Assembly (NCBI GenBank): GCA_039715015.1
Contig: JBDLIE010000005.1
Span: forward strand, 5,575 to 69,574
Reading direction: 5' to 3'
Source of the DNA: Thermodesulfobacteriota bacterium
Lineage (GTDB): Bacteria; Desulfobacterota; Desulfobulbia; Desulfobulbales; SURF-16
Length of the DNA stretch: 64,000 nt
In this document: positions 1-57,970 of the stretch, piece after piece
How positions within the stretch are numbered: position 1 is the first letter of the stretch
Layout of the letters: every line of letters begins with the position of its first letter
Notes under the pieces: generated by a model
The model's database searches: none
The model's input: only the letters and a program-made list of their open reading frames with translations
Told to the model about the DNA's origin: nothing
Program-made: the position numbers and the translations under genes

Positions 1-27
1 AATGGTGATTCGATTATGAGGATTATC

Positions 28-67
28 CACCTTCTTACTTCTCAACTACTTATTTCTCAAATTCTCC
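28..67. repeat. pyrimidine-rich repeat arm (ccaccttcttacttctcaactacttatttctcaaattctcc); partial copy of the ttctcaacttctcaaattc family, cut by the window edge
   Basis: Shares the words ttctcaac / tttctcaaattc with the right arms at 2190-2211 and 11738-11788. Lies directly upstream of the ACP start. Confidence 0.5.
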
Positions 68-82
68 ATATAGAGGCATCCC

Positions 83-334
83 ATGACGCGCGATGAAATA
101 AAAAATTTAATCCTGGATATCATTGCTGATATTGATGAAGACGCAGAATTCGATGGTTTGGACCCTGATAAACCTCTTCGCGATCAGCTTGACCTTGATT
201 CTATGGATTTTCTTGACATCGTTATGGAACTCCGCAAGCGTCATCAATTACAGATTCCTGAAGAGGATTATCCTGAGCTTGCCACTCTAAATAGCTGTGT
301 CAACTATCTCGAACCAAAGCTGAAAGACAAATAA
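83..334 (+). CDS. acyl carrier protein
   Basis: 83-aa ORF. DLDSMDFLDIVMEL fits the ACP phosphopantetheine-attachment Ser motif. It is the first gene of a co-directional lipid cluster. Confidence 0.85.
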   Translation: MTRDEIKNLILDIIADIDEDAEFDGLDPDKPLRDQLDLDSMDFLDIVMELRKRHQLQIPEEDYPELATLNSCVNYLEPKLKDK

Positions 335-338
335 GAAT

Positions 339-1715
339 TTGGCTGACTACCAGCTTGTCATAATCGGCGCAGGTCTTTCCGGCCTCGCCTCCGGCATACG
401 TGCTGCCCGTTTTGGTTTAAAGACCCTCATCCTTGAGCAGCATTCACTTCCCGGTGGATTAAACTCCTATTATTTCCGTAAAGGTTTCTTGCTTGAAACC
501 GGCCTCCATGCAATGACCAACTATGCAGAGGCTGGCGATAAACGTGCACCTTTAAATCGTCTCTTTCGGCAACTGAAGTTGTCGCGCAAGAAATTCGCTA
601 CCCACCAGCAATTCTCCTCCCTGATCCGCTTTCCGCATACATCTCTGCAGTTTTCAAACGACATTACTCTTCTGCAGGCTGAGATTGATGAGCATTTTCC
701 CCATTGTCGTGATTCCTTTCAGGATTTGCTGACCAATGTTGCTGATTACGACCCTTTTGCTCCGTCATCCTGGCGCTCTACCCGCCAATTTCTTAACAAT
801 CTGATACCTGACCCCTTGCTCATCGATATGCTTCTGCTGCCCCTTATGGTTTATGGCAATAGCGAGGAGCATGATATGGACCTTGGCCAGTTCGTCATTA
901 TGTTTCGCTCAATATTTCTTGAGGGATTCTTCCGGCCTGACGACACCATGAAGGAGTTCCTTGCTATGCTTGTTGAGCATTATAAGGGCTTTGGTGGAGA
1001 GCTGAGATACAAGGCTAAAGTCGAGTCTGTTGAACGAAAAGATGAAGAGGTGAAGGGGGTCCGGATCGCTGGGGGTGATTATGTCAGTTGTGATACCTTG
1101 CTTTCGACGGTGGGTGCACCTGGCACGGCAAAACTTGTTGACTGGCCTAAAGAGCCCGCAAACTATGAAGGGCGAATGAGTTTTGTAGAATCCATCTCGG
1201 TTTTACCTTCTGCGCAGCGGCGTGTTCTCAATGCCGACCACACCATCATTTTTTATAATAGTCAGCAGGAACTATCATATGCCAGACCGCAAAGAGCTTT
1301 GAGTCCGGACTGGGGTGTTATTTGTTTCCCTGAAAACTTCCATGACCTGCCTAAACAGGATTTTTTTCAGGTTCGGGTTACCAATGCAGCAAATTATGAT
1401 ATCTGGAAGCAGACAAATTCTGAAGAATATCAACAGTTGAAGGTAGATGCGGAGGCTCAGACCTTTGCAGTCGTATCTGAAATAATTGGGAATTATCAGA
1501 AGAATAGAGTATATCAGGATAGCTTTACACCGCTTACCATTGAACGTTTTACATCCAAAGCTCAAGGGGCTGTCTATGGAAGTCCCGTCAAAATTAAAGA
1601 CGGCTTAACTCCATACAGCAATCTCTTCGTCGCTGGTACTGACCAAGGCTTCTTGGGTATTGTTGGCGCAATGTTGAGCGGGGTAACCATCGTGAATCAG
1701 CAGGTCTTGAGGTAG
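339..1715 (+). CDS. FAD/NAD(P)-binding oxidoreductase, phytoene-desaturase (CrtI)-like
   Basis: N-terminal Rossmann motif VIIGAGLSGLASG...LEQ. Length about 458 aa, typical of the CrtI/amine-oxidase family. TTG start 5 nt after the ACP stop. Confidence 0.75.
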   Translation: MADYQLVIIGAGLSGLASGIRAARFGLKTLILEQHSLPGGLNSYYFRKGFLLETGLHAMTNYAEAGDKRAPLNRLFRQLKLSRKKFATHQQFSSLIRFPHTSLQFSNDITLLQAEIDEHFPHCRDSFQDLLTNVADYDPFAPSSWRSTRQFLNNLIPDPLLIDMLLLPLMVYGNSEEHDMDLGQFVIMFRSIFLEGFFRPDDTMKEFLAMLVEHYKGFGGELRYKAKVESVERKDEEVKGVRIAGGDYVSCDTLLSTVGAPGTAKLVDWPKEPANYEGRMSFVESISVLPSAQRRVLNADHTIIFYNSQQELSYARPQRALSPDWGVICFPENFHDLPKQDFFQVRVTNAANYDIWKQTNSEEYQQLKVDAEAQTFAVVSEIIGNYQKNRVYQDSFTPLTIERFTSKAQGAVYGSPVKIKDGLTPYSNLFVAGTDQGFLGIVGAMLSGVTIVNQQVLR

Positions 1716-1736
1716 AAGTTGAGAAATAAGAATTTG
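1715..1736. repeat. left arm of inverted repeat flanking the four-helix-bundle gene (gaagttgagaaataagaatttg)
   Basis: 21 of 22 nt are complementary to 2190-2211. The arm starts on the last base of the upstream stop codon. Confidence 0.85.
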
Positions 1737-1787
1737 TGAAATAAGAACAACAGCTTCTTAATTTACTTCGTCAGCAAGGCAAGTTAA

Positions 1788-2145
1788 ATGGCAGCAGCTA
1801 AAAGTTTTCAGGATTTGGTGGTTTGGCAGAAGGCGCACACCTTTGTCTTACGAGTATATCAAGTAACTACTGAATTTCCTGCAGATGAACGCTTTGGATT
1901 GACTTCACAGTTTCGCCGGGCCGCAGTTTCCATACCTGCCAATATTGCCGAAGGTTTCCGTAAGAGCGGTAAAGCGGATAAGCTTAGATTCTACAACATC
2001 TCCCAAGGCTCCCCTTGAGGAATGTCGATATTATGTTCTTCTAGTAAGTGACTTAGGATTCGCCGAAGTTCCCGAACTTGAGGTCTTGTTAGAGGAGGTG
2101 AGTAAATTGCTAAATGCTTACAACCGATCCATACGGACATCATAA
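1788..2145 (+). pseudogene. four-helix-bundle protein (23S rRNA intervening-sequence protein family), frameshifted
   Basis: Two overlapping ORFs (1788-2018 and 1945-2145). Together they read FQDLVVWQKAH...RFGLTSQFRRAAVSIPANIAEGF...KLRFYNISQGS / LEECRYYVLLVSDLGF...LLNAYNRSI, which is colinear with the family. The frames join if one C is removed from the C4 run at 2011-2014. Confidence 0.8.
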
Positions 2146-2189
2146 ATTTTAAAAAAGATGCTCCACTACTTTTTTTACTACCTATTTGA

Positions 2190-2211
2190 CAAATTCTTAC
2201 TTCTCAACTTC
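2190..2211. repeat. right arm of inverted repeat flanking the four-helix-bundle gene (caaattcttacttctcaacttc)
   Basis: Reverse complement of 1715-1736 with one mismatch. Ends 10 nt before ATG 2222. Confidence 0.85.
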
Positions 2212-2221
2212 TCAGAAAACA

Positions 2222-3631
2222 ATGCCTTTCACTCCTCTTAACGAAACAAAAGATAAGTATGATGTCATCGTCATCGGCTCCGGTCTCGGTGGTCTTACCT
2301 GCGCCAACCGTCTAGCAAGTGTTGGTCACTCGGTTCTTCTTCTCGAGCATCATTTTAAGCTCGGTGGTCTTGCCACCTGGTTCAAACGTAAATCCCATGT
2401 TTTTGACGTGTCCCTCCATGGATTTCCTTATGGGATGGTCAAGACTTGCAAAAAGTATTGGACAAAAGAAATTCGTGATTCCATTGTCCAACTTAAGGAT
2501 ATCGTTTTCGATAATCCGCAGTTTTCCTTGAAAACAACCTTTGACAAGACAAATTTTAGCGATCTGTTAGTTAAGAAATTTAAAATTGCCAGAGGTGTGG
2601 TGGATAATTTCTTTGAGACCGTCAATAAGATGAATTTCTACGACGATCTCTCCATGACAACCAGAGAGCTCTTTGAGAAGTTTTTTCCCGGCCGGACAGA
2701 TGTCCATCGTTTTCTCATGGAGCCCATCACCTATGCCAACGGCTCAACATTTGACGAGCCAGCCATTACCTACGGCATTGTCTTTTCAAACTTCATGAAT
2801 AAGGGCGTCTTTACCTTTAAAGGCGGCACAGACAAGCTCATTGGCCTGATGGGCGAAGAGCTGCAGCGTAACGGCGTTACTATCTGCACCAAGGCCAAGG
2901 TGGATAAGGTCGTTGTTGAAAATGGAAAGGTCACAGGGGTTGCTGTGGGTGGCCGAATTATTAATTCCCCGTGTGTTGTCTCAAACAGCGGAATAACTAA
3001 TACCATTTATAATCTTGCCGGCCGTGAGGCCTTTTCCGAAGATTTTTTAAACCAGATTGACACGGTCAAGGTCAATAACTCCAGCTGTCAGGTTTACTTT
3101 GGTCTGAAGCCCGGCGAATCATTCCCTGCTGTTGGTGACCTTCTCTTTACCTCAACCTCTGAAGAGTTTTCCTCCCAAGAGATGCTGAAGGCGGACACCA
3201 AGAGCCGCACTTTCTCTGTCTATTATCCGAAAACAAGACCGGATGGCAAAGAGGATTATACCGTTGTGGCCTCCATGAACGCCGATTACGATGACTGGGC
3301 GAACATGACTGACGCGCAATACAAGAAGGCCAAGGAGGATATGATAGAGCGTTGTTTTGATGATCTTGAGCGCTATATCCCCGGCATTCGCAATAAGTGT
3401 GACTGGGTAGAGGCCGCTACCCCCATGACTTTTAACCGTTATACCTTGCATACCAAGGGCACTTCCTTTGGCACCAAATTCGAGGGCCTTGATGTTTCTC
3501 GTAATCTTTTCAAGGTATTACCTGGCCTTTTCCACGTTGGCTCTGTGGGTATCATTATGAGCGGCTGGCTCGGTGCCATCAACTACGGCGTCATTGTCGC
3601 CAACGATGCAGATGCCTATCTGCGTAGTTAG
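2222..3631 (+). CDS. FAD/NAD(P)-binding oxidoreductase, phytoene-desaturase (CrtI)-like, second paralogue
   Basis: [16 protein letters not shown]...LLEHH Rossmann motif. The ORF track opens at TTG 2186, but that stretch is the inverted-repeat arm, so ATG 2222 (MPFTPLNE) is preferred. Confidence 0.75.
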
Positions 3632-3657
3632 CAGCTTCCAATTTTATCATAGAAATT

Positions 3658-4398
3658 ATGTCAGATTTTAATGACCAGAAAATAGTCGTAACCGGCGCAA
3701 CACGGGGAATCGGTGCCGCCATCTCCTTGGCGTTTCTTAGCCAGGGGGCTACTGTTATTGGCCTTTATGGCGGTAATGATTCGGCAGCTGAGGCCTTTCG
3801 TGGCCAATGTGGTGATAATGCCCAGCGTCTCCATCTCTTTAAATGCGATGTCAGTGATTACGCTGCTGTTGAGGCCTTCTATACCGATATTGAATCGCGG
3901 TTTGACACCATTGATGTCTTGGTCAATAATGCCGGGATACGCCGTGATGCCGTTCTTGCCATGATGAAGGAGGAAGATTGGCGCCAGGTTATTGATATTA
4001 ACCTTACTGGCGGCTACAACATGAGTAAATTCGCTGTCCAACTCATGATGAAGCAGAAGTATGGCCGTATAATTTTCATCACCTCACCCATGGCCCATTT
4101 GGGTTTTGTTGGCCAGGCCAACTATGCTGCATCCAAGGCCGGCCAGATTGGTATGATGAAGTCTCTTTGCAAAGAAACGGCAAAGCGTAAAATTACGGTT
4201 AACTGTGTGTCGCCAGGCTTTATCGCCACCGAGCTTCTTGATGATCTAGAGAAGGAACAGGTAAAGGCCTATAAGAAAATGGTGCCGGCGCGGCGTTTTG
4301 GTAAACCAGAAGAGGTTGCTGATTCTGTTCTTTTCCTTGCCGGACGCAATGCTGCATATATCAATGGCGCTGTCCTGGAAATTACCGGCGGTCTGTAA
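3658..4398 (+). CDS. fabG: 3-oxoacyl-ACP reductase (SDR), FabG-like
   Basis: TGATRGIGAAIS cofactor motif, NNAG, and the YAASKAG catalytic Y-x3-K. 246 aa. Confidence 0.85.
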   Translation: MSDFNDQKIVVTGATRGIGAAISLAFLSQGATVIGLYGGNDSAAEAFRGQCGDNAQRLHLFKCDVSDYAAVEAFYTDIESRFDTIDVLVNNAGIRRDAVLAMMKEEDWRQVIDINLTGGYNMSKFAVQLMMKQKYGRIIFITSPMAHLGFVGQANYAASKAGQIGMMKSLCKETAKRKITVNCVSPGFIATELLDDLEKEQVKAYKKMVPARRFGKPEEVADSVLFLAGRNAAYINGAVLEITGGL

Positions 4399-4442
4399 AA
4401 TACCGATACAGAACGCAGAATTCTGAATTCAGAAATGCCTTT

Positions 4443-4895
4443 GTGAAAAAAATGGATATACAAGACTCTGAATTCATTACATCACGTATTCCCCACAGGC
4501 CTCCTTTTCTTTGGCTTGATTCTATTATTTCTCTCACCAATGATGAGATTGTAGCTGAAAAAGAGATTGCTGCTGATCTTGATGTCTTTAATGGCCATTA
4601 CCCGGATTATCCCATAATGCCAGGGGTCCTTCTTTGTGAGGCTGTTTTCCAGGCAGGTGCTCTGCTCATATCTGAAAGTCTCAATAAAAATGAGGTTGAG
4701 GCTCCAGAAGGTGTTCCTGTCCTTACCCGGATTCTCGGGGCTAAATTTAAACGTGAAGTGGTGCCGGGCGATACCATTACCCTGACCGCTGCTCTTGCTG
4801 AAAAAGTAGGGCCAGCCTGGTTTATGAAGGGGTCGGTAAAGGTGGCTGGTAAGGTGGCCGTCAAGGTTGAGTTTGCCTGCACCTTAAAAAGCTAG
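4443..4895 (+). CDS. fabZ: 3-hydroxyacyl-ACP dehydratase, FabZ/FabA hot-dog fold
   Basis: IPHRPPFLWLD...FNGHYPDYPIMPGVLLCEAVFQAG is colinear with the E. coli FabZ active-site region. Confidence 0.8.
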   Translation: MKKMDIQDSEFITSRIPHRPPFLWLDSIISLTNDEIVAEKEIAADLDVFNGHYPDYPIMPGVLLCEAVFQAGALLISESLNKNEVEAPEGVPVLTRILGAKFKREVVPGDTITLTAALAEKVGPAWFMKGSVKVAGKVAVKVEFACTLKS

Positions 4896-4930
4896 AAGGT
4901 AAAGGAGGTACAGAAGGTAAAGGAGGTACA
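4895..4930. repeat. perfect 18-bp tandem direct repeat x2 (gaaggtaaaggaggtaca)
   Basis: Read directly. Each unit carries an aaggagg Shine-Dalgarno-like core. It is followed by a pyrimidine-rich tract at 4963-5010. Confidence 0.9.
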
Positions 4931-5012
4931 GAAGAGATGAGTGATTAAAGAAACTTTTTTTGCCTCTTTACATTCATCTAACTTTTCTAACTTCTTTAAC
5001 TTCTCATCTGAA

Positions 5013-5813
5013 ATGAGTTTTCTTGGACTGCATGGTAAAAAAATAATTGTCTTTGGCTTGGCAAACAAGAAGTCTGTTGCCTGTGCTATAGGTAAGGTAC
5101 TTGTGGAAGAGGGCGCGGAGCTGGTCCATGTAGTTCGCAGCGAGGAGCGGGCCCAGACTGCTCGGAAGCTTTTTCCCAAAAGTCCTGTTTTTATCTGTGA
5201 CGTTGAGGATGAGGAAAACATTGTCCGGCTCCGTGATGAGATTAAAGGCAAAATCGATGCCCCTATAGATGGCATCGTTCATTCCATTGCCTTTGCCAAC
5301 TACTCTGAGGGGATGAAGCCTTTTCATGCCACCTTGAAAAAGGATTTTCTTCAAGCCGTGGATATATCCTGCTTTTCCTTTATTTCCATTGCTAATCATT
5401 TCAAGGACATGCTTGCTCCTCATGGTTCCATGGTGACCATTTCCATTTCAGCAACCCGGATGGCAGCTGAGAATTATGGCTATATGGCCCCGGTAAAGGC
5501 CGCCCTTGAATCCTCGCTTTGTTTTCTCACTAAGAGTTTTTCAGCCTTTTCCGAGGTTCGTTTTAACGCAGTTTGCCCCAGTCTGTTAAAAACGTCGGCT
5601 TCAGCAGGAATTCCGGGCTATATTGACAGCTATCTCTTTGCCGAAAAAGTCATCCCCCGTAAAAAGGCCCTCAAGACTCAAGAGGCTGCCGATGTTGCCG
5701 CCTTTTTACTTTCTGAACGTTCCTCCGGCATGACCGGTCAGTGCCTGGTGGTCGATGCTGGTATGTCCCTTAATTATTTCGATGCCGCGGTGGTGGAAAA
5801 GGTCGTAAGTTAA
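5013..5813 (+). CDS. fabI: enoyl-ACP reductase, FabI-like
   Basis: [21 protein letters not shown] resembles E. coli Fab[34 protein letters not shown] supplies the catalytic Tyr and Lys. ATG 5013 is preferred over GTG 4941, which lies in the repeat region. Confidence 0.8.
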
Positions 5814-5933
5814 TGTTTGCCACGGAACCCACGAAATTGTCCGAAGAAGTTAAAGAATATAAAGGAGGTAAAGAATGTAGAGGAAGAAGATGAGAATTGT
5901 TAGGAGTAGGGGGCAAGGTGCTTGTTTTTCCTT

Positions 5934-5978
5934 TACCTTCTCTACCTTCTCTACCTTCTCTATCTTCTCTATCTTCTG
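5934..5978. repeat. 9-bp tandem repeat x5 (taccttctc x3, then tatcttctc, tatcttctg)
   Basis: Read directly. It is a pure-pyrimidine-rich tract facing a purine-rich tract at about 5842-5895. It ends 9 nt before the oleA ATG. Confidence 0.9.
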
Positions 5979-5986
5979 TTTTCTTC

Positions 5987-7021
5987 ATGAAATATTCCCG
6001 CGTTTGTCTCCATAATCCTGGCTATGCCCTGCCGCCCAATGAGGTCTCTTCGTCTGCAATTGAGGCTCGCCTTGCCCCTGTTTACCAGCGTCTTAAATTA
6101 CCTGAAGGCCGTCTTGAGTTGATGAGTGGCATTAAAGCTCGCCGTTTCTGGAACAAAGGAACACGGCCCAGCGATGGTGCTGCCCTGGCCGGCAAAGATG
6201 CCATAGCAAAGGCCGGAGTTAAGCCTGATGAACTTGAGTGTTTAATATTTACCTCTGTCTGCCGGGACATGATGGAGCCTGCTACTGCCGCCTTTGTTCA
6301 TCGTCAGCTTGACCTGCCTGAAAGATGCCAGATCTTTGATCTCTCCAATGCCTGTCTTGGCTTTTTAAACGGCATGATAATGCTGGCCAATATGATTGAG
6401 CTTGGCCAGATAAAGAAGGGGATTGTTGTTGCCGGAGAAACAGCCGAGGACTTGGTGGAATCAACCATTAATCATCTCCTTCAAGACAACAGTCTGACCC
6501 GCAAATCCATCAAGCCCGCCTTTGCCTCCTTTACCATTGGTTCCGGTGCCGTAGCCCTGGTGATGCAGGATAAACAATGTGCTGACACCGGCCACTATCT
6601 GGTTGGTGGTGCCTGCCGGGCCAATACAACCCATAATGATCTTTGCCAGGGCGGCCAGGCCGGTACCGAAGGCGTGCTCATGGCCACTGATTCTGAGCAA
6701 CTTCTCCAAGAGGGCGTCGACACCGCTGCCCTTTGCTGGCAGGACTTTCTGCCAGAGCTTAATTGGCAAAAAGATGATATAGATCGTTTTTTCTGCCATC
6801 AGGTGGGCAGGGCCCATGCCCAGCTCCTTTTTGAGACCCTGGATCTTGACCCTGCCAAAAATTTTGAAACATTGCCTGTGCTGGGCAATGTCGGTTCTGT
6901 CTCGGCACCTATTACCATGGCCATGGGTATAGAGCAGGAGGTCCTCAGGAACGGGGACAGGGCCGCCCTGTTGGGTATTGGCAGCGGCATCAACTCCCTT
7001 ATGCTTGGCATTGACTGGTAA
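5987..7021 (+). CDS. oleA: OleA, thiolase-fold (FabH-like) acyl-CoA head-to-head Claisen condensing enzyme
   Basis: Colinear with my recollection of Xanthomonas OleA, not an alignment: GIKARRFW, TSVCRDMMEPATAA, FDLSNACLGFLNGM, VVAGE, HQVGRAH, LGNVGSVSAPI, GDRAALLGIGSGIN..W. Followed by oleBCD in canonical order. Confidence 0.85.
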   Translation: MKYSRVCLHNPGYALPPNEVSSSAIEARLAPVYQRLKLPEGRLELMSGIKARRFWNKGTRPSDGAALAGKDAIAKAGVKPDELECLIFTSVCRDMMEPATAAFVHRQLDLPERCQIFDLSNACLGFLNGMIMLANMIELGQIKKGIVVAGETAEDLVESTINHLLQDNSLTRKSIKPAFASFTIGSGAVALVMQDKQCADTGHYLVGGACRANTTHNDLCQGGQAGTEGVLMATDSEQLLQEGVDTAALCWQDFLPELNWQKDDIDRFFCHQVGRAHAQLLFETLDLDPAKNFETLPVLGNVGSVSAPITMAMGIEQEVLRNGDRAALLGIGSGINSLMLGIDW

Positions 7022-7899
7022 TGGAGAATCTAGCTCAGTATCCCTTTTCCCCGAAGACCATCACCATTAATGGCAACCGTCTTTCCTACCTTGATGAGGG
7101 GCAGGGGCCTGTTTTGGTCATGCTGCACGGCAACCCTTCCTGGTCCTATCTCTACCGGAACCTGGTCAGTCATCTCCGTGATCGTTTTCGGATCATTGTC
7201 CCTGATCACATGGGGTGCGGTTTTTCTGATAAGCCCCAGGATTACGCCTATACCTTACGAACCCATATTGATAATCTCACTACGCTGCTAGATCATCTTG
7301 ATGTAGAGCAATGTAGCTTGGTAGTCCATGATTGGGGCGGAGCCATAGGCATGGGTTGGGCCGTTGATCATCCGGAGAAGGTTGATAAGATTTGTGTCTT
7401 GAACACCGCCGCCTTTTTGTCCAAGCGCATTCCCCTGCGTATCAATATCTGCCGTATCCCTGTTGTCGGGAAGATGATTGTGCAAGGCTGTAATGGTTTT
7501 GCCTGGCCGGCGACCTTTATGGCGGTGACAAAAAAAATGACTAAAGAGGTGGCTCAGGGATTTTTATACCCTTATGATTCCTGGGCCCATCGAATAGCCA
7601 CCCATCGTTTTGTTCTGGATATACCTTTGCAAAAAAAGCACCCATCCTGGCCAGATCTGGCCCATATTGATAAAAGTCTGGCTAAGCTTAAGGGCAAACC
7701 CATGCTCCTGTGCTGGGGCGGCAAGGATTTTTGTTTTAATGACCATTTTTACAAGGAGTGGCAGCACCGTTTCCCTGCTGCCCAATGCCATTATTTCCCT
7801 GCTGCCGGTCATTATATTCTTGAAGACGCCTTTGATGAAGTGGCTCCCTTGATTGACAAATTCTTTTCCAATTCAAAGAGTAGTGCTGATGAATTTTAA
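7021..7899 (+). CDS. oleB: OleB, alpha/beta-hydrolase (haloalkane-dehalogenase-like) beta-lactone decarboxylase
   Basis: MLHGNPSWSYLYR and VVHDWGG nucleophile-elbow region. The TAATG overlap with oleA suggests translational coupling. Confidence 0.8.
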   Translation: MENLAQYPFSPKTITINGNRLSYLDEGQGPVLVMLHGNPSWSYLYRNLVSHLRDRFRIIVPDHMGCGFSDKPQDYAYTLRTHIDNLTTLLDHLDVEQCSLVVHDWGGAIGMGWAVDHPEKVDKICVLNTAAFLSKRIPLRINICRIPVVGKMIVQGCNGFAWPATFMAVTKKMTKEVAQGFLYPYDSWAHRIATHRFVLDIPLQKKHPSWPDLAHIDKSLAKLKGKPMLLCWGGKDFCFNDHFYKEWQHRFPAAQCHYFPAAGHYILEDAFDEVAPLIDKFFSNSKSSADEF

Positions 7900-9505
7900 T
7901 ATCGCCCAAACCTTCGCCGATGTAGCCGCCGAGCGACCTGCCGAGGTTGCTTTGGTTCAAGGAAAGAGGGGTAGATATCAAGAGTGCACTTTTAAAGATC
8001 TCCACGAGCAAAGCGCCCTTTATGTCGCAGCCTTAAAAGGGCAGGGGATTTGCCCGGGGCAGCGGGTTATGCTGATGGTGCCCCCGTCGCTGGAGTTTCT
8101 CTCCCTCACCTTTGCCTTGTTTAGCCTGGGCGCCACGGTTATTCTCATTGATCCAGGTATGGGGTATAAGAATCTTCTACGCTGCATTGGTGCTGTCAGG
8201 CCTGATGTCTTGATCGCCATTCCTAAGGCCCATATCTTTAAGCTCATCTTTCCCCGGCCTTTTCAGACTATCTGCACCAATATCTGTGTTGGGAGATCCT
8301 TGGGAATCTTCGGCCATTCCTTGGCCACCATATGCTCTCAGGTTGAACCTGATTTTAAGGTCTTTGAGGCCGGTGAAGATGATTTGGCTGCTATCATTTT
8401 CACCACTGGTTCCACGGGGCCGCCTAAAGGTGTCCAGTATAGCCATGGGATTTTCCATGCCCAGCTTGAGCTAATCCGCTCCTATTATAAGATTGGCCCG
8501 GGTGAAATCGACCAGCCTGCCTTTCCCCTCTTTGCACTTTTTTCTACAGCTCTCGGCGCTAGGGCGGTCTTGCCCGACATGAATCCTGCTAAACCCGCCC
8601 AGGTCAATCCTGAGGAATTTATCCGCTCTCTTAATGATCAGGGTGTGACCTATTCTTTTGGTTCTCCTGCAATCTGGAGCGTTGTGAGCCGTTATTGTCT
8701 GCAAAAAAAGATTGTTTTACCTCTTAAAAAAATCCTCATGGCCGGCGCCCCTGTTTCCGGGGAACTTATTGAGCATGTTCTAGAAATTATGGCCCCGGGG
8801 GGAGAGGTACATACCCCTTACGGTGCCACTGAGAGCCTGCCTATTTCCTCTATGGCCGGCACTGAGGTCGTTGACGAAACATGGGCCCAAACTCAGATTG
8901 GCAAGGGAACGTGTGTTGGCAGACCGTTACCCGGGATCACCATCAAAGTCATGAGGGTTGCGACAAGGCCAGTGGAAAATTATAGCCAGGTTGCAATTCT
9001 CCCAGTTGGTGAAATTGGTGAAATTATTGTTAAAGGACCTGTGGTGACTCGGGCCTATGATCATAATCCCGAGGAAAGTTACGCAGCTAAGATACAGGAT
9101 GGCGATTCATTCTGGCACCGCATGGGCGATATGGGATATTTTGATGATAAGGGCCGTCTCTGGTTTTGTGGACGAAAGGCCCATCGGGTCCTGACTTCCC
9201 ACGGGCCACTCTACACTATCCCCTGCGAGGCGATTTTCAATGTCCATAAGGATGTTTATCGAACAGCCCTTGTGGGAATAGGCCCGGCGGGGCGCCAGAC
9301 CCCGGTTCTATGTGTCGAATGCCGAGATCAAAAGTGCGACAAGGAACGGCTTGCCATGGAGCTGCGGGCCCTTGGTATCCAAAATAAGGTGACAAGAGGG
9401 ATAGATGAAATCCTCTTTCATCCGGCATTCCCGGTGGATATCCGTCATAATGCCAAAATCTTCAGAGAGAAGTTGGCTGTTTGGGCTGCTCGAAAATTAG
9501 GGTAA
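7889..9505 (+). CDS. oleC: OleC, AMP-dependent synthetase family beta-lactone synthetase
   Basis: Adenylate-forming motifs IIFTTGSTGPPKG, YGATE and GDMGYFDDKGRLWFCGRK. ATG 7889 overlaps the oleB stop. Confidence 0.8.
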   Translation: MNFNIAQTFADVAAERPAEVALVQGKRGRYQECTFKDLHEQSALYVAALKGQGICPGQRVMLMVPPSLEFLSLTFALFSLGATVILIDPGMGYKNLLRCIGAVRPDVLIAIPKAHIFKLIFPRPFQTICTNICVGRSLGIFGHSLATICSQVEPDFKVFEAGEDDLAAIIFTTGSTGPPKGVQYSHGIFHAQLELIRSYYKIGPGEIDQPAFPLFALFSTALGARAVLPDMNPAKPAQVNPEEFIRSLNDQGVTYSFGSPAIWSVVSRYCLQKKIVLPLKKILMAGAPVSGELIEHVLEIMAPGGEVHTPYGATESLPISSMAGTEVVDETWAQTQIGKGTCVGRPLPGITIKVMRVATRPVENYSQVAILPVGEIGEIIVKGPVVTRAYDHNPEESYAAKIQDGDSFWHRMGDMGYFDDKGRLWFCGRKAHRVLTSHGPLYTIPCEAIFNVHKDVYRTALVGIGPAGRQTPVLCVECRDQKCDKERLAMELRALGIQNKVTRGIDEILFHPAFPVDIRHNAKIFREKLAVWAARKLG

Positions 9506-11018: not shown

Positions 11019-11675
11019 ATGGATTTTCACAAACTTGAAAAAGGCACATTTGCCAATTTAGCCGACGAAAAGCAGCATGCCATAATGAAGGCGGCGATCT
11101 TTGAGTTCGCCTCTCAGGGCTACCAGAAGGCGAGTTGTAACAGTGTCGTTAAGGAAGCTGGAATTTCTAAGGGCTCCCTGTTTCAATATTTCGGCAGTAA
11201 AGAAGGCCTCTTTCTTTTTGTCTTTGGCCGCTTTATTGGCAAGGTGAAAGCTTCGGTGAAAGAGGCAACCACCAGGAAGACAGATTTTTTTGATCTCGTA
11301 CAGGCCATTTTGGTAGCTGGTTTGCAGTTTGTTGATAGCTACCCGCAATATTTTCAGATGTACCTCCGGGTTCTCTTTGAGCAGGAGATCCCGCGCAGGG
11401 AGGAGCTGTTGGCTGAAGTCCGCCTCTTCTCCAGGGAGTATTTCGGCCCCCATTGCCAAGCTGCTCAGGAACAGGGCATCATTCGCAATGATATTGCGGT
11501 TGAAATGGTCATCTTCATGCTTGATGCGGCTATTGATCGTTTTTTGCAGGCCTATGCCAGGCCCTATCTCGACAGTGGTCTCGGCCTGGCTGGTTTGAGC
11601 AAGAAAGAGCTGCAGGAGAGGGTGGCGGAATTACTCATTGTTTTAAAGGATGGCTTAAGGCCTGCCACTAAATAA
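11019..11675 (+). CDS. TetR/AcrR-family transcriptional regulator
   Basis: N-terminal HTH region AAIFEFASQGYQKASCNSVVKEAGISKGSLFQYFGSKEGLF. Confidence 0.85.
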   Translation: MDFHKLEKGTFANLADEKQHAIMKAAIFEFASQGYQKASCNSVVKEAGISKGSLFQYFGSKEGLFLFVFGRFIGKVKASVKEATTRKTDFFDLVQAILVAGLQFVDSYPQYFQMYLRVLFEQEIPRREELLAEVRLFSREYFGPHCQAAQEQGIIRNDIAVEMVIFMLDAAIDRFLQAYARPYLDSGLGLAGLSKKELQERVAELLIVLKDGLRPATK

Positions 11676-11788
11676 GAATTTGAGGAATAAGAAATAAGAA
11701 GTTGAGAAGAAGGTACTTTTCTTTATTGATAACCTTTCCTTCTATTTATTTCTCAACTTCTCAAATTCTTGTTTCTCAAATTCTCAAC
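11676..11788. repeat. cargo-less imperfect hairpin of the same word family as the IVS-like cassette arms
   Basis: The purine-rich arm 11676-11713 (gaatttgaggaataagaaataagaagttgagaagaagg) faces the pyrimidine-rich arm 11738-11788 (ccttctatttatttctcaacttctcaaattcttgtttctcaaattctc). It starts right after the TetR stop codon. Confidence 0.75.
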
Positions 11789-24373: not shown

Positions 24374-24437
24374 CCGGAGGGCCGGGTGCCCCGCAGGAGA
24401 TAAGCGAAGACTTCGAATACCCTTGGGGTGCTCCTAC
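24374..24437 (+). repeat. 64-bp dispersed repeat, copy 1
   Basis: ccggagggccgggtgccccgcaggagataagcgaagacttcgaatacccttggggtgctcctac is the exact reverse complement of 37256-37319. Confidence 0.95.
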
Positions 24438-37255: not shown

Positions 37256-37319
37256 GTAGGAGCACCCCAAGGGTATTCGAAGTCTTCGCTTATCTCCTGC
37301 GGGGCACCCGGCCCTCCGG
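37256..37319 (-). repeat. 64-bp dispersed repeat, copy 2 (inverted relative to copy 1)
   Basis: Exact reverse complement of 24374-24437. Confidence 0.95.
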
Positions 37320-45689: not shown

Positions 45690-47045
45690 TTACACCTCCA
45701 AATCAGAGTCTGTTTGGGTGGCTAATGATTTGCTGAAAGAGATAGTTATAGTTGTTCCTGTGTCTTCATGGCTTTCAATATCGAGGGCCCCTTCGAGCTG
45801 GGTTGCCAACGATTTTGCCAGAAAAAGGCCAAGTCCCATACCCTTGCCAACAGGTTTTGTGGTGAAGAAAGGGTCTGTCGCCTGTTCAGCAACTTCTTGT
45901 GACATACCACAACCTTGATCAGTTACTATGAAATAAATGTACTCGCCATCCTCTTTACATTCAAGGGTGATTTCTCCGTCAGGCGGGCTTGCATCTGCTG
46001 CATTGGATAACAGGCCCTTTAATGACCAAGAGACAGCATGAGAGGGGACATGGAGTTGTTTGCTTGGAAGCATATTGTTTACAACAAGGTTTTGAGAGAT
46101 ATTGCCAAGCAATTCTCGAGCGCTTTCGATGAGTTCATCAGTGGTACTGGGAGTATGTTTTTCCCCTTGGATAGCGCCGGCATCTGCAGACATTTGAAAG
46201 AGGATCTTTTTGCAACGGTTGGTTTGTTCCCGAATGAGCTGGGCGTCATCTAAGAGATCTTTGTCATAGATTTCATTCTCACAATGATAGACCATTTCCC
46301 CTGATGCCAGACCAATGGTGGCGAGGGGGGTGGAGAGTTCATGGGCAGCCCCTGCAGCCAGGGTGGCAAGAGCGCTAAGCTTGTCGTTTTGCAGCTTTTC
46401 CTGGCGCAGCTTGGCAATGGTACGATGATAGTCCCTGAGGGATTGTTGGATGCGTGAAGCGAAAAAGGTGATCAAAACGGCACTAACAGCATAGGCAAAC
46501 CACATACCCTGTAGATGAAGATCCATATTAAAATTAGTGATATTGCAAACCTGCTGAACCTCCTGACTTGCCCCAGCTCCACTTTGTTTGAGAAGTGAGG
46601 GCAGAAACATGCCCCCATAAGAAAGAATTGTAGAGATGGAAAGGCCCCAGGCAAGAAGAGATGATAACAAGATGGCGCCAAGGGTGATATGGACCAGATA
46701 GATAAAGGTAAATGGGTTCATTGTGCCGCCAGTAATATAGAGCAACCCTGTGAGAAGGATTATGTCGCCATATAAAGTCAGAGGCAGAAGATATTCAGGT
46801 GGTGGCTTTTGGTGGCTGTGAAGACGAAGAGCAAGGGCGGTGTTGGTAATAATTTCAACAATAATTACAGTACTGACGGCAAAGATAGGAAGGTCAAGAT
46901 GGAAAAAGAATGAACCAATGGCAATGGTGAGAATCTGGCCAGCAACGGCCCACCATCGCAATTTGACTAACCAGTTAAGGCCAATACTCCGCGTATCATG
47001 GAGATTTTGTTGTGATTCTAAGCTGGTAAAAAGTGAGTGATGCAT
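45690..47045 (-). CDS. regB: RegB/ActS/PrrB-type redox sensor histidine kinase
   Basis: Multi-TM N-terminus containing GGTMNPF (the RegB quinone-site GGxxNPF motif), H-box AAHELSTPLATI, a downstream Cys in QTNRCKKIL (redox-box-like), and HATPase DQGCGM, GKGMGLGL. Confidence 0.8.
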   Translation of the reverse strand: MHHSLFTSLESQQNLHDTRSIGLNWLVKLRWWAVAGQILTIAIGSFFFHLDLPIFAVSTVIIVEIITNTALALRLHSHQKPPPEYLLPLTLYGDIILLTGLLYITGGTMNPFTFIYLVHITLGAILLSSLLAWGLSISTILSYGGMFLPSLLKQSGAGASQEVQQVCNITNFNMDLHLQGMWFAYAVSAVLITFFASRIQQSLRDYHRTIAKLRQEKLQNDKLSALATLAAGAAHELSTPLATIGLASGEMVYHCENEIYDKDLLDDAQLIREQTNRCKKILFQMSADAGAIQGEKHTPSTTDELIESARELLGNISQNLVVNNMLPSKQLHVPSHAVSWSLKGLLSNAADASPPDGEITLECKEDGEYIYFIVTDQGCGMSQEVAEQATDPFFTTKPVGKGMGLGLFLAKSLATQLEGALDIESHEDTGTTITISFSKSLATQTDSDLEV

Positions 47046-47177
47046 TTGGTGTTGATTTAATAATTAATAGAAAAAATGCTCTTAATTAAAACACGTTAGC
47101 ATATCAATTTTATGGCTGCTAGGTATTTGAAAAAAGGCTTTGGCATAGCTTGGTGAAAAGGGAAAAAACAGGCCTAT

Positions 47178-47192
47178 GCGACAATTTGCCAC
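47178..47192. promoter_or_regulatory. GCGACAATTTGCCAC box upstream of regB
   Basis: Identical 15-mer at 57107-57121. Lies 133 nt upstream of the regB start codon. Confidence 0.6.
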
Positions 47193-47309
47193 ATTTTTCC
47201 GGTCGGCAACTTGTGTTCATGTGAATCCTTTACATATTTCTGATGAGCGAACCCAAGTAAACATTGAATATTTACCCTTTTATCCTTCTGCTTGTTATGT
47301 TGAGACACC

Positions 47310-47627
47310 TTAAACAGCATCATCGTCGATAAAACCCGCGAATATTTTTGCAAGCATGGGTTTGACATAACAACCAATGAATTCCCTGATCATCTTGTTG
47401 TTGAGCTTGACTTCATCGCCTCGCCTGAGGATGAAAAAGAGGCCAGCAGCGAAGAATTTCTGCGCATCTATTTCCGGCCTTGGTTTGGTCAATTTCGCAA
47501 CCTTGTTTGTAAAGAAGTTGAGGTTCGCGATATTAAAGCGGCTGTGGAGGGGGTAGATTTTTTCACGAGCAATGAGACTGACGCGGACTCGGACCAGGCC
47601 GCTTAAGATTAGAGCCCTAGAAGGCAT
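47310..47627 (-). CDS. orphan 105-aa ORF, possible gene remnant
   Basis: ORF only. No motif recognised. Sits in an 870-bp otherwise non-coding gap. Confidence 0.2.
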   Translation of the reverse strand: MPSRALILSGLVRVRVSLIAREKIYPLHSRFNIANLNFFTNKVAKLTKPRPEIDAQKFFAAGLFFILRRGDEVKLNNKMIREFIGCYVKPMLAKIFAGFIDDDAV

Positions 47628-56684: not shown

Positions 56685-56979
56685 ACTCTCTGGCAATGGT
56701 GCGGTGTCACTCGCTTAAGGATTGCTGAATGTGCGAGACGAAAAAGGTCGTTAAAATTGCACTTATGGCAGAAGCAAGCTCCATACCCTATAGATGAAGG
56801 TCCATATTCAAGGTAGTAATAGTGCAAACCTGCTGGAAAAGAAATGAACCGATCTTGATCGTAAGAATTTGGCTGGCCACGGCCCACCAACGTAATTTTA
56901 GCAGCCACAAGAGACCAATTCGCTTGGTGTTATGAGTATTTTGCTAAGGATTCAGTCTGCTTAGAAAAGTGGGATCCAT
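56685..56979 (-). pseudogene. decayed, internally deleted copy of the regB-type kinase 5' region
   Basis: The minus strand translates to MDPTFLSRLNP*QNTHNTKRIGLLWLLKLRWWAVASQILTIKIGSFLF-QQVCTITTLNMDLHL*GMELASAISAILTTFFVSHIQQSLSE*HRTIA. The intact kinase reads ...RSIGLNWLVKLRWWAVAGQILTIAIGSFFF...QQVCNITNFNMDLHLQGMWFAYAVSAVLITFFASRIQQSLRDYHRTIA. The copy has three in-frame stops and lacks about 340 bp (46567-46905 equivalent). Confidence 0.8.
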
Positions 56980-57106
56980 TGTGTTTGGTTGAGGTGGAAG
57001 GGAAGGTGTCGACTGAATCAAAATCAGCACATCAACCTCAAGCCCGCCAACCACCTAAGGGACACTTTCTCAATATCTTTTGGCCAAAAGGATCAACGAG
57101 ACTTAT

Positions 57107-57121
57107 GCGACAATTTGCCAC
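57107..57121. promoter_or_regulatory. GCGACAATTTGCCAC box upstream of the TorD/molybdoenzyme operon
   Basis: Identical to 47178-47192. It is embedded in a roughly 60-bp block (57104-57163) that is homologous to 47175-47235. Confidence 0.6.
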
Positions 57122-57318
57122 ATTTTCCCTGCCGCTAACTTGTGTTAAGGAGAATCGTTTACAAGGAAAAGGTGAATTGGCCTAAGTATGCAATGCTTAT
57201 ACAAAATTCATTCTCTTATTTTTTTTAACGAGTATGTAAAGCTCCTTTGAATATTTGATTCTCATTTTTTTTATTTTGTAATGAGTACACCAATATATTC
57301 TGACAACCACGGTATCTT

Positions 57319-57870
57319 ATGTCAGCAGCAGACGAGCCAATCAGGCTTGCAGAAATCTATCGTTTCCTGGCGCAGACCATGCGCTATCCAGAGTCATCAT
57401 GGTTCCATGATGACTATCTCTCTGTTTTTAAAGAGATGCTCGTTCAGCTTGAGTGGCAAGATAACGTCAATGCCCTTCCTGAGAGGATTACTGACGAGAT
57501 CCTTGAAGAGATTCAGGTTGATTACACCCGCCTTTTTATCAATGCCGTTCCTCATGTTATAGCCCCTCCTTATGCCTCGGTATATATCGATGGTACCTTA
57601 AATAGCACCACTGCTGATAAGACCCGCGAGTATTTCCGCCAGAAAGGCTTCGATACCACAAACACCGAGTTCCCTGACCATCTTGTTACTGAACTTGATT
57701 TCCTGTCCTTGCTTGAGGATGAGAGTGAGGGCAGTAGCGAAGAATTTTTAACCCAATATTTTCGCCCCTGGTTTGAGATGTTTCGCGATCTTGTTCTAAA
57801 AGAGGTTGAAGTTTCATACATCAAATCAGCCATTGAACTAATAGATTTTTTCACCACCAATGAGACCTAA
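57319..57870 (+). CDS. TorD/DmsD-family redox-enzyme maturation chaperone
   Basis: YRFLAQTMRYPE, DYTRLFINAVPHVIAPPYASVYIDG, and FPDHLVTELDFLS match the TorD-family pattern. Confidence 0.75.
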   Translation: MSAADEPIRLAEIYRFLAQTMRYPESSWFHDDYLSVFKEMLVQLEWQDNVNALPERITDEILEEIQVDYTRLFINAVPHVIAPPYASVYIDGTLNSTTADKTREYFRQKGFDTTNTEFPDHLVTELDFLSLLEDESEGSSEEFLTQYFRPWFEMFRDLVLKEVEVSYIKSAIELIDFFTTNET

Positions 57871-57970
57871 GCGGGCTGTGAACAGGCCGCTTAATATATG
57901 AGTCTACAAAGCATATTTTTTTTGAAGCTTACTGTTTCAAATAATTAAAACCTGAGGGAGGTAAGAGAAT

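Follow-up and report, generated by a model that had tools for sequence, protein, structure and literature searches.

A putative IVS-type hairpin cassette with a frameshifted four-helix-bundle gene in an operon spacer of a Desulfobulbales bacterium

The origin and spread of the intervening sequences (IVSs) of bacterial rRNA, as well as the function of their S23p open reading frame (ORF), are questions that date from the early 1990s and are still open (discussed in PMC4990558). In Coxiella burnetii, the IVS measures 428-444 nt and is closed by a terminal stem of 28 bp, interrupted by one mismatch and a bulge, in the loop of which the S23p ORF resides; an AG-rich motif followed by tandem heptamers of the sequence GACAGAT belongs to the same element (PMC4990558). 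The Coxiella ORF is under reductive evolution, the IVS is cut by RNase III in vitro and its origin was stated to be unknown (PMC4990558). Here, we analysed a stretch of 64,000 nt from a Thermodesulfobacteriota bacterium of the order Desulfobulbales (GenBank assembly GCA_039715015.1, contig JBDLIE010000005.1, positions 5,575 to 69,574 of the forward strand; 'the window' hereafter), in which a small gene of the S23p family, enclosed by a purine-rich inverted repeat, separates two CrtI-like genes of an operon. All features of the window named below lie on the plus strand, and loci used for comparison carry L-numbers.

An initial annotation of this stretch had described the insert as an IVS-like, possibly mobile cassette in an mRNA. 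We propose that it is a decaying hairpin cassette of the IVS type, located in an mRNA spacer within a conserved lipid/olefin operon, and consider this explanation as a whole fairly probable. The identity of the cassette, its insertion and its turnover at the site are claims that we make with great confidence.

The inverted repeat and its frameshifted gene

One arm of the repeat, GAAGTTGAGAAATAAGAATTTG, occupies 1715-1736, and a stretch complementary to it at all positions but one occupies 2190-2211, exactly where the initial annotation had placed them; 0 of 100 dinucleotide-preserving shuffles matched this arm pair. After extension, the arms turned out to be longer than first described, with 30 nt each (1714-1743 and 2183-2212) and complementarity at 28/30 positions (93%), and they form the top-ranked local inverted repeat of the whole window. 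The upstream CrtI-like gene ends in TAG (1713-1715), and the left arm starts within this stop codon; on the other side, 9-10 nt separate the end of the right arm from the ATG at 2222 of the downstream CrtI-like gene (CrtI-2), in agreement with the earlier description of arms that fill the intergenic gap. When the region 1700-2225 was folded as RNA, as had been suggested as a check, the predicted stem appeared and the arms were paired in both the minimum free energy (MFE) and the centroid structure. The arm duplex has a dG of -34.2 kcal/mol, with 28 positions of the 30-nt stem paired.

Degenerate AGAA-NNN(N) units make up the purine-rich left arm (1714..1743), in a repeat run that goes on to 1747 and is identical at 32/34 positions to the arm of the intact ortholog in L002; the pyrimidine-rich right arm (2183..2212) is identical at 27/30 positions. 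Read in another register, the Coxiella heptamer GACAGAT becomes ACAGATG, which is close to the ACAGAAG units seen here. Between left arm and ORF, a spacer (1748..1787; 30/39 identical to L002) offers only a weak AAGG ribosome-binding motif. An A/T-rich segment (2146..2182) follows the ORF and is devoid of the nested inner hairpin of ~100 nt that L002 carries between ORF and right arm (L002 940-1038), a second hairpin of the same arm family. Neither a sigma-70-like promoter nor an intrinsic terminator was called inside 1715-2211 on the plus strand. A function of the stem as intrinsic terminator was rejected, as 1715-2225 contains no terminator-like site and the stem is A/U-rich and followed by CAGAAAAC; transcription from a promoter of its own found no support either, since none was called within the cassette on the coding strand. 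Rfam returned no match to the element in 1600-2300, neither at the gathering threshold nor at E<=1, and the 64-kb window holds no rRNA.

The enclosed gene belongs to the four-helix-bundle family PF05635/TIGR02436. Its N-terminal 76 codons occupy 1788..2018 and end at a premature TGA (2016-2018), while the C-terminal 43 codons of the same protein (LEECRYY...RTS) follow in the +1 frame at 2014..2145 with a TAA stop at 2143-2145. A nucleotide alignment locates the shift to 2011..2014, where the window has a run of four C and the L002 ortholog one of three. The extra C is also present in a second assembly, contig L001 (Logan SRR27843389), in which 3/5962 positions deviate from the window; this contig was found by an exact look-up with the FabG protein, whereas an exact look-up with CrtI-2 gave no match. 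Deletion of one C from the run yields a protein of 118 aa that matches PF05635 (23S_rRNA_IVP) with 7.9e-36 and 122.9 bits (cut-off 33.8) and TIGR02436 with 1.9e-33 and 114.9 bits (cut-off 24), as well as PDB 2gsc, the Xanthomonas S23p pentamer (E 8e-18). The repaired protein also displays the RxxxSxxxNxxE motif (R44, S48, N52 and E55; ...FRRAAVSIPANIAEGF...), a conserved motif noted for Xcc0516 homologs (PMC3936711).

The reading frame expected in this family has ~115-130 codons and is intact in the orthologs of L002, L177, L178 and L180; the window copy stops after 76 codons and is a pseudogene. The family named in the initial annotation was thus confirmed, whereas the break in the ORF had been missed there. 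Compared with L002, the amino-acid differences amount to 10/75 before and 7/43 after the shift, and this similarity, together with an overall dN/dS of 0.088, suggests that the reading frame was lost recently in the lineage of the window. Programmed +1 frameshifting at CCU-UGA, which would yield QGSPEEC for QGSLEEC, has nothing in its support: the orthologs simply do without the extra C.

Occupied, replaced and empty spacers in relatives

To place the insert in context, one genome per species was scanned with CrtI-2, which gave 80 Desulfobulbales loci (the nearest GTDB representative is a 90% match), and their CrtI-1/CrtI-2 spacers were compared by means of a tblastn gene map and the spacer sequences. 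In more than 70 of the 80 species, the spacer measures 2-100 nt and holds no four-helix-bundle gene. Such a gene occurs in this spacer only in a subclade in which CrtI-2 is >=81% identical to that of the window, with the window, L002 (=L010), L005, L006, L009, L177, L178 and L180 as members with an occupied site. L011, with a CrtI-2 identity of 90%, has an empty spacer of 59 nt which is unstructured (z 0.1); its resemblance to the right-arm region of the cassette is suggestive only. In L016 (CrtI-2 identity 76%), purine and pyrimidine arms surround nothing but an N-terminal remnant, AKSFEDLIVWQKAHE, plus another nested repeat; a 20-bp inverted-repeat element lies within this decayed cassette at L016 6736-6867. 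The pattern is as sporadic as that of the IVSs, and comparison with the clusters that lack the element, as proposed by the initial annotation, shows that it is an insertion in this spacer. The opposite finding, a version of the ORF without repeats as a conserved cluster member, did not emerge: the ORF is restricted to the subclade and always accompanied by arms.

Phylogenetic analysis of four host genes (CrtI-2, FabG, FabZ and FabI) places the window, L010, L011, L005 and L006 in one clade (bootstrap 1.0), the inner branching of which is unresolved, with L009 as sister. The four-helix-bundle proteins at the site, in turn, fall into three lineages: the window type (window, L002, L177, L178 and L180), the L005/L006 type and L009. 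The window type forms a clade with a bootstrap of 96%, and all five of its members reside at this site. Identity between the three lineages is 62-67%, compared with 81-90% for CrtI-2, and is thus no higher than that between the window protein and homologs from other phyla; monophyly of all site-resident copies was recovered in 0/200 bootstraps. Between window and L002, the synonymous divergence (dS) of the gene is 0.83 with a dN/dS of 0.088, while the dS of CrtI-2 is 1.14; for the four-helix-bundle genes of L005 and L006, dN/dS is 0.125. These values indicate that the gene of the window lineage was inherited vertically under purifying selection. The insertion is not recent, being common to relatives at ~80% nucleotide identity and passed on vertically.

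Taken together, the three lineages and the states found in L011, L016 and the window imply that the cassette of this one spacer was acquired or replaced no fewer than three times, lost once, degraded once and frameshifted once. Since the same spacer of sister lineages holds other lineages, a decayed copy or nothing, the cassette is dispensable and turns over.

The arms behave differently from the cargo. Between window and L002, only 5/64 arm positions differ, compared with 17% for the ORF, 23-41% for the spacers and a proportion of synonymous differences (pS) of 0.50; the binomial probability of so few differences ranges from 0.03 to 1e-13, depending on the reference rate chosen. The arm units of other lineages differ in sequence, with GAAGTTAAA repeats in L006, GAGGAGTTAGAGAAGGTA in L005 and AGGAGTC/AGGATTC in L178, but the complementarity of left and right arm is kept in each lineage. 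Matches to the 22-nt arm (<=4 mismatches) in 1.4 Mb of loci were confined to the five-taxon clade, apart from one match with four mismatches in the metagenomic locus L091. Judged from these comparisons, the stem is either the most constrained feature of the cassette or homogenised by concerted evolution, and it outlasts its cargo.

Operon setting, homologs and companion cassettes

The cassette is part of a co-directional cluster composed of KAS (just upstream of the window, in L001), ACP, two CrtI-like FAD oxidoreductases, FabG, FabZ, FabI and OleA-, OleB- and OleC-like genes, presumably a lipid or olefin pathway. By the names given to close homologs, the organism belongs to Desulfobulbales (Desulfurivibrionaceae/Desulfobulbaceae). 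The upstream CrtI-like gene (339..1715; Pfam Amino_oxidase and NAD_binding_8) was also called in L001, and CrtI-2 (2222..3631) is its distant paralog with 23% identity (E 3e-25). The order from KAS to the OleA/B/C-like genes (83-9505 in the window, and loci L010-L089) is kept across many Desulfobulbales, while the second half of the cluster varies.

Other spacers of the first 12 kb harbour four hairpins without cargo (z -2.0 to -8.0). The hairpin of the KAS-ACP spacer reaches into the window with its loop and right arm (1..66, with the right arm at 32-66), its left arm lying just upstream (L001 1870-2010, z -3.7), and it belongs to the arm family of the cassette, as does a hairpin between two co-directional genes at 11675..11784 (dG -43.7, z -7.96). 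The hairpins of the FabZ-FabI spacer (4906..5009, z -2.0) and the FabI-OleA spacer (5843..5986, z -2.9) share another type of 9-nt purine repeat, GAAGGTAAA/GGAGGTACA, together with its complement. Related cargo-less hairpins had been claimed in the initial annotation; they exist, and the arm sequence of the cassette recurs in two of the four. Arm-like copies within the window are short and 86-95% alike.

In metagenomes, a scan with the protein yielded 80 loci at 58-70% identity, and 0/80 of these homologs reside in an rRNA gene, which implies that cassettes of this type normally reside in spacers between protein genes and only exceptionally in rRNA. The earlier proposal of an IVS-like cassette in an mRNA thus holds with regard to insertion, given the short or empty spacers of relatives, and to anatomy, given the match to the Coxiella IVS; an origin from rRNA, in turn, does not fit these homologs. 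Of the metagenomic loci, 56 have >=200 nt of sequence on either side, and in 22 of the 56 (~40%) the gene is flanked by an inverted repeat that exceeds the 95th percentile of controls obtained by shifting and permutation; arms are up to 186 nt long at 96% identity. These arms consist of tandem heptamers (AGGAGTC, AGAAGTC, AGAATTC, AGAATCC), with the purine-rich coding strand upstream and the complementary one downstream, and abut the ORF at a distance of 1-30 nt upstream and -5 to +10 nt downstream. Upstream tandem arrays of period 7, 8 or 14 were found in 25/75 loci compared with 1/136 control regions, and three AGRA units at period 7 in 40/75 loci compared with 3/136 controls. Both neighbours were co-directional in 29/41 loci, although this figure stems from a crude strand analysis and is only modestly informative. 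A TwoAYGGAY RNA motif (RF01731, 50.8 bits; L166 337-495) lies ~2 kb upstream of one metagenomic four-helix-bundle gene and is probably unrelated to it.

Named genomes provide further examples. On plasmid pNPUN02 of Nostoc punctiforme, the cassette (NC_010632.1 15234-15599) has five AGGAGTC-type units before its ATG. In a type III-B CRISPR operon of Picosynechococcus sp. PCC 7003, a four-helix-bundle gene flanked by inverted arms (L182; NZ_CP016476.1 126543-126899) separates cas10/cmr2 from cmr3; window positions 11672-11686 recur without change in these arms, as ATAAGAATTTGAGGA. In the Desulfobacterales metagenome-assembled genome (MAG) L004, arms of 125 nt, made of AGAAGTC/AGAATAC units, stand beside a copy in an unrelated (ABC-)transporter operon. 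Within the limited coverage of our literature search, we found no paper on four-helix-bundle genes in inverted heptamer arrays outside rRNA.

A second kind of gene occupies neighbouring spacers of the cluster. GxxExxY/PD-(D/E)XK genes (TIGR04256, PF13366) are found in the CrtI-2/FabG and FabI/OleA spacers of relatives (L002 2519-2951; L005 5161-5968; L006 7407-7840; L009 7410-8061 and 10176-10654; L027 8407-8857), and most of them are nested in inverted CACGGAA/CACAGAG heptamer arrays, unlike the arms of the four-helix-bundle cassette; the L009 copy at 7416-7817 has no flanking inverted repeat. The window has lost its GxxExxY genes and retains a left-arm remnant of the CACGGAA type, tttGCCACGGAAcCCACGAAattg, at 5816..5839, in the spacer that holds a GxxExxY/PDDEXK_3 gene in L009 and L012. 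In L005, a truncated GxxExxY copy and, after it, a duplicated 3' end of CrtI-2 (L005 5161-5519) are placed between CrtI-2 and the intact GxxExxY gene; this second cassette possibly arrived together with flanking host sequence, as a footprint of recombination or homing. A search of viral contigs gave no match with a single GxxExxY protein and only 7 distant loci with an alignment as query; the distant homologs on the IMG/VR contigs L171-L174 are located inside inverted tandem-repeat arrays of other units. PADLOC had no match for either the four-helix-bundle or the GxxExxY proteins.

Two further repeats of the window are reported here for completeness. A 64-nt sequence has a second, inverted copy 12.8 kb away at 100% identity (24374-24437 and 37256-37319), both seemingly located between longer ORFs and with neither an Rfam match nor a notable structure (z ~ -0.3). 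The regions 46412-47606 and 56691-57894 share several stretches of 72-79% identity, always ~10.3 kb apart, and may represent two paralogous gene clusters.

Explanations and comparison with known systems

How could an insert be tolerated in the midst of a conserved operon? We hypothesise that a small four-helix-bundle gene (S23p/23S_rRNA_IVP, a relative of Avd), filling the loop of a stem of purine-rich repeats, entered the spacer in an ancestor of the Desulfobulbales subclade, was then inherited vertically and recently lost its frame in the window. Having neither promoter nor terminator of its own, the cassette would be transcribed together with the operon. In the mRNA, the A/U-rich stem of 28/30 bp would form, leaving the upstream stop and the downstream start ~10 nt apart and the cargo looped out. 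RNase III could then cut this stem as it cuts those of rRNA IVSs, since more than two helical turns are long enough for a substrate, and would thereby free the cassette RNA and separate the two cistrons. Cut or uncut, the stem would make the insertion tolerable, which would account for arms that survive their gene and for the persistence of hairpins without cargo. As the left arm starts at the stop codon of the upstream gene, ribosomes that terminate there would open the stem at its base; more speculatively, this would expose the Shine-Dalgarno-like repeats before the cargo ORF in canonical members and could let the cassette borrow the translation of the operon. Spread is most simply pictured as horizontal transfer with recombination in or near the arms, a footprint of which might look like the duplicated 3' end of CrtI-2 in L005; for any specific route, our confidence is low.

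Several observations weigh against this explanation. A dN/dS of ~0.09 over a long vertical residence is unexpected for a purely passive passenger and would be compatible with a function at the level of the host. Mobility is seen as turnover at one site, which may reflect recombination between orthologous loci; a copy of the window-type protein lineage at a second genomic site was not found in the loci searched, nor did Nostoc plasmids show near-identical copies of a Nostoc cassette at other loci, the copies there reaching only ~80% identity. Cleavage of the stem by RNase III in vivo, argued from analogy with the IVSs, is somewhat doubtful in our view. No direct repeat flanks the arms (junctions cttgaggt/AGAAG and CTTCT/cagaaaac), hence a target-site duplication is missing. 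The arms of the window are a degenerate variant (AGAAGTTG/AGAAATA/AGAATTT) in which the strict pattern of three AGRA units at period 7 is not found. Finally, the fold of the whole 526 nt has a z of -1.75, which is not significantly beyond shuffles, so that our case builds on the arms and not on global energy.

Arms that are better conserved than their cargo, and unrelated cargo-less heptamer hairpins at the same spacer in L017, L025, L032 and L048, would fit an explanation in which the hairpins are host RNA elements for segmental mRNA stability, processing or translational coupling, with the gene as an incidental passenger. However, the L011 operon has short, unstructured spacers throughout, so that such hairpins are dispensable. 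AGRA-heptamer arrays, moreover, flank four-helix-bundle genes in unrelated phyla and operons, as exemplified by the shared 15-nt arm segment on the cyanobacterial plasmid, so that arms and cargo appear to form one unit, and the GxxExxY cargo of relatives comes with distinct CACGGAA arms of its own. We deem this explanation rather unlikely. Conversely, the protein itself could be a component or regulator of the lipid/olefin cluster that is selected by the host, and the repeats its expression signals: nearly all sampled members of the subclade have a family gene in this very spacer, and purifying selection acts on it (dN/dS 0.09-0.13). This would be hard to reconcile with more than 70 other species that possess the same cluster without the gene, with its absence in L011, its frameshift in the window and its decay in L016, with three non-monophyletic lineages filling one slot and with the occurrence of the family in contexts as unrelated as an ABC-transporter operon, cas operons and plasmids. 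A cluster component is accordingly improbable.

Weak matches of the protein to bAvd (PF22296, 29.8 bits), NF033474 (30 bits) and PHROG 3206 ('Avd protein of DGR') would fit a remnant of a diversity-generating retroelement (DGR) with an Avd accessory gene. All of these scores, though, fall short of the curated cut-offs (40 and 80 bits), in contrast to those for PF05635 and TIGR02436, which clear their own by a wide margin. Both neighbours are CrtI-like, and in the immediate surroundings of the gene, to which the search for a reverse transcriptase (RT) was confined, neither an RT nor a pair of template and variable repeats (TR/VR) is present. A DGR remnant is hence highly improbable. The modest z of the whole-region fold is all that speaks for a spurious ORF within an inverted repeat that arose by chance or through misassembly, a notion of practically negligible probability: no shuffle reproduced the arms, the same structure recurs in a second assembly and, with conserved arms, in relatives that diverge by ~20%, and the ORF matches its family at E 1e-35. 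A miniature inverted-repeat transposable element (MITE) or a transposon with terminal inverted repeats was rejected, as the element lacks a target-site duplication and encodes no transposase.

Returning to the IVS-type hairpin cassette, the copy of the window is an ordinary, decaying member of a widespread class of such cassettes in mRNA spacers which seems under-described, with GxxExxY cassettes as apparent companions. A bolder and unlikely version of this idea would see a cross-phylum class of autonomous hairpin cassettes, in which four-helix-bundle genes in inverted arrays of Shine-Dalgarno-like heptamers, with GxxExxY/PD-(D/E)XK as a sister type, colonise spacers as well as rRNA helices, are rendered harmless by stem formation and RNase III excision and are spread by their own Avd-like protein (e.g. 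through binding of repeat RNA or DNA, recruitment of a reverse transcriptase or recombination), the 23S IVSs being the rRNA-resident minority. In any case, the locus and its relatives show the stem-heptamer-ORF architecture of IVSs in ordinary operon spacers. With occupied, replaced, decayed and empty states at one orthologous site, they provide a comparative system for insertion boundaries, for selection on arms versus cargo and for effects on neighbouring genes. As such cassettes split conserved operons, they can also mislead function predictions that are based on genomic context.

Among the known systems with which the element can be compared, the TAACTGA repeats of Beggiatoaceae and cyanobacteria are intergenic tandem heptamers with a patchy distribution across phyla (PMC4679880). 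They, and the short tandemly repeated repetitive sequences (STRR) of cyanobacteria, resemble the arms in placing short tandem heptamers in spacers directly upstream of start codons and in their patchy occurrence across phyla; in contrast, they are direct repeats without an enclosed gene, with only one inverted set reported, whereas the arrays described here are inverted pairs around a specific small gene. Avd, a pentameric accessory protein of diversity-generating retroelements which binds nucleic acid and RT (PMC10053308), has a homologous four-helix-bundle fold, but the gene of the window lacks an adjacent RT or TR/VR pair and scores below the Avd-specific cut-offs.

The Correia elements (nemis) of Neisseria form RNA hairpins that are bound and cut by RNase III, which alters the expression of neighbouring genes (PMC2649163). 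Inverted-repeat ends and intergenic insertion are common to them and the cassette, and Correia elements are co-transcribed with their neighbours, much as we propose here. They are, however, non-coding MITEs of 100-155 bp with target-site duplications and hundreds of near-identical copies (PMC2649163), whereas the element of the window encloses a gene for a protein between arms of tandem short repeats and lacks a target-site duplication.

23S_rRNA_IVP genes inside cas loci have been interpreted as functionally associated with nucleases (Zhang, Doak and Ye 2014, PMC3936711). As in the window, the gene is wedged into a conserved operon, which we verified for the order cas10/four-helix-bundle gene/cmr3 of PCC 7003, where the arms resemble those of the window; flanking inverted arrays or insertion polymorphism do not feature in the passages of that report concerned with these genes. 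The arms and position of the PCC 7003 gene suggest a cassette insertion instead of a functional association, and the same more likely applies to '23S_rRNA_IVP genes associated with cas loci' than a role as functional partners.

The closest relatives of the element are the 23S IVSs with an S23p ORF, known from Coxiella burnetii, Leptospira, Xanthomonas and Brucella. These differ in residing in helix 9, 25 or 45 of 23S rRNA and not in a spacer between protein genes, and RNase III excision, proposed for the cassette of the window, has been shown for the IVS. Fragmented rRNA stays together within the ribosome; in the window, it is an mRNA that would be severed. In their anatomy, the two are alike: the loop holds the same protein family, the length is ~500 nt here and 428-444 nt in the IVS, a stem of 28/30 bp stands against one of 28 bp in Coxiella, and both combine purine-rich tandem repeats between stem and ORF with a decaying ORF and a sporadic presence.

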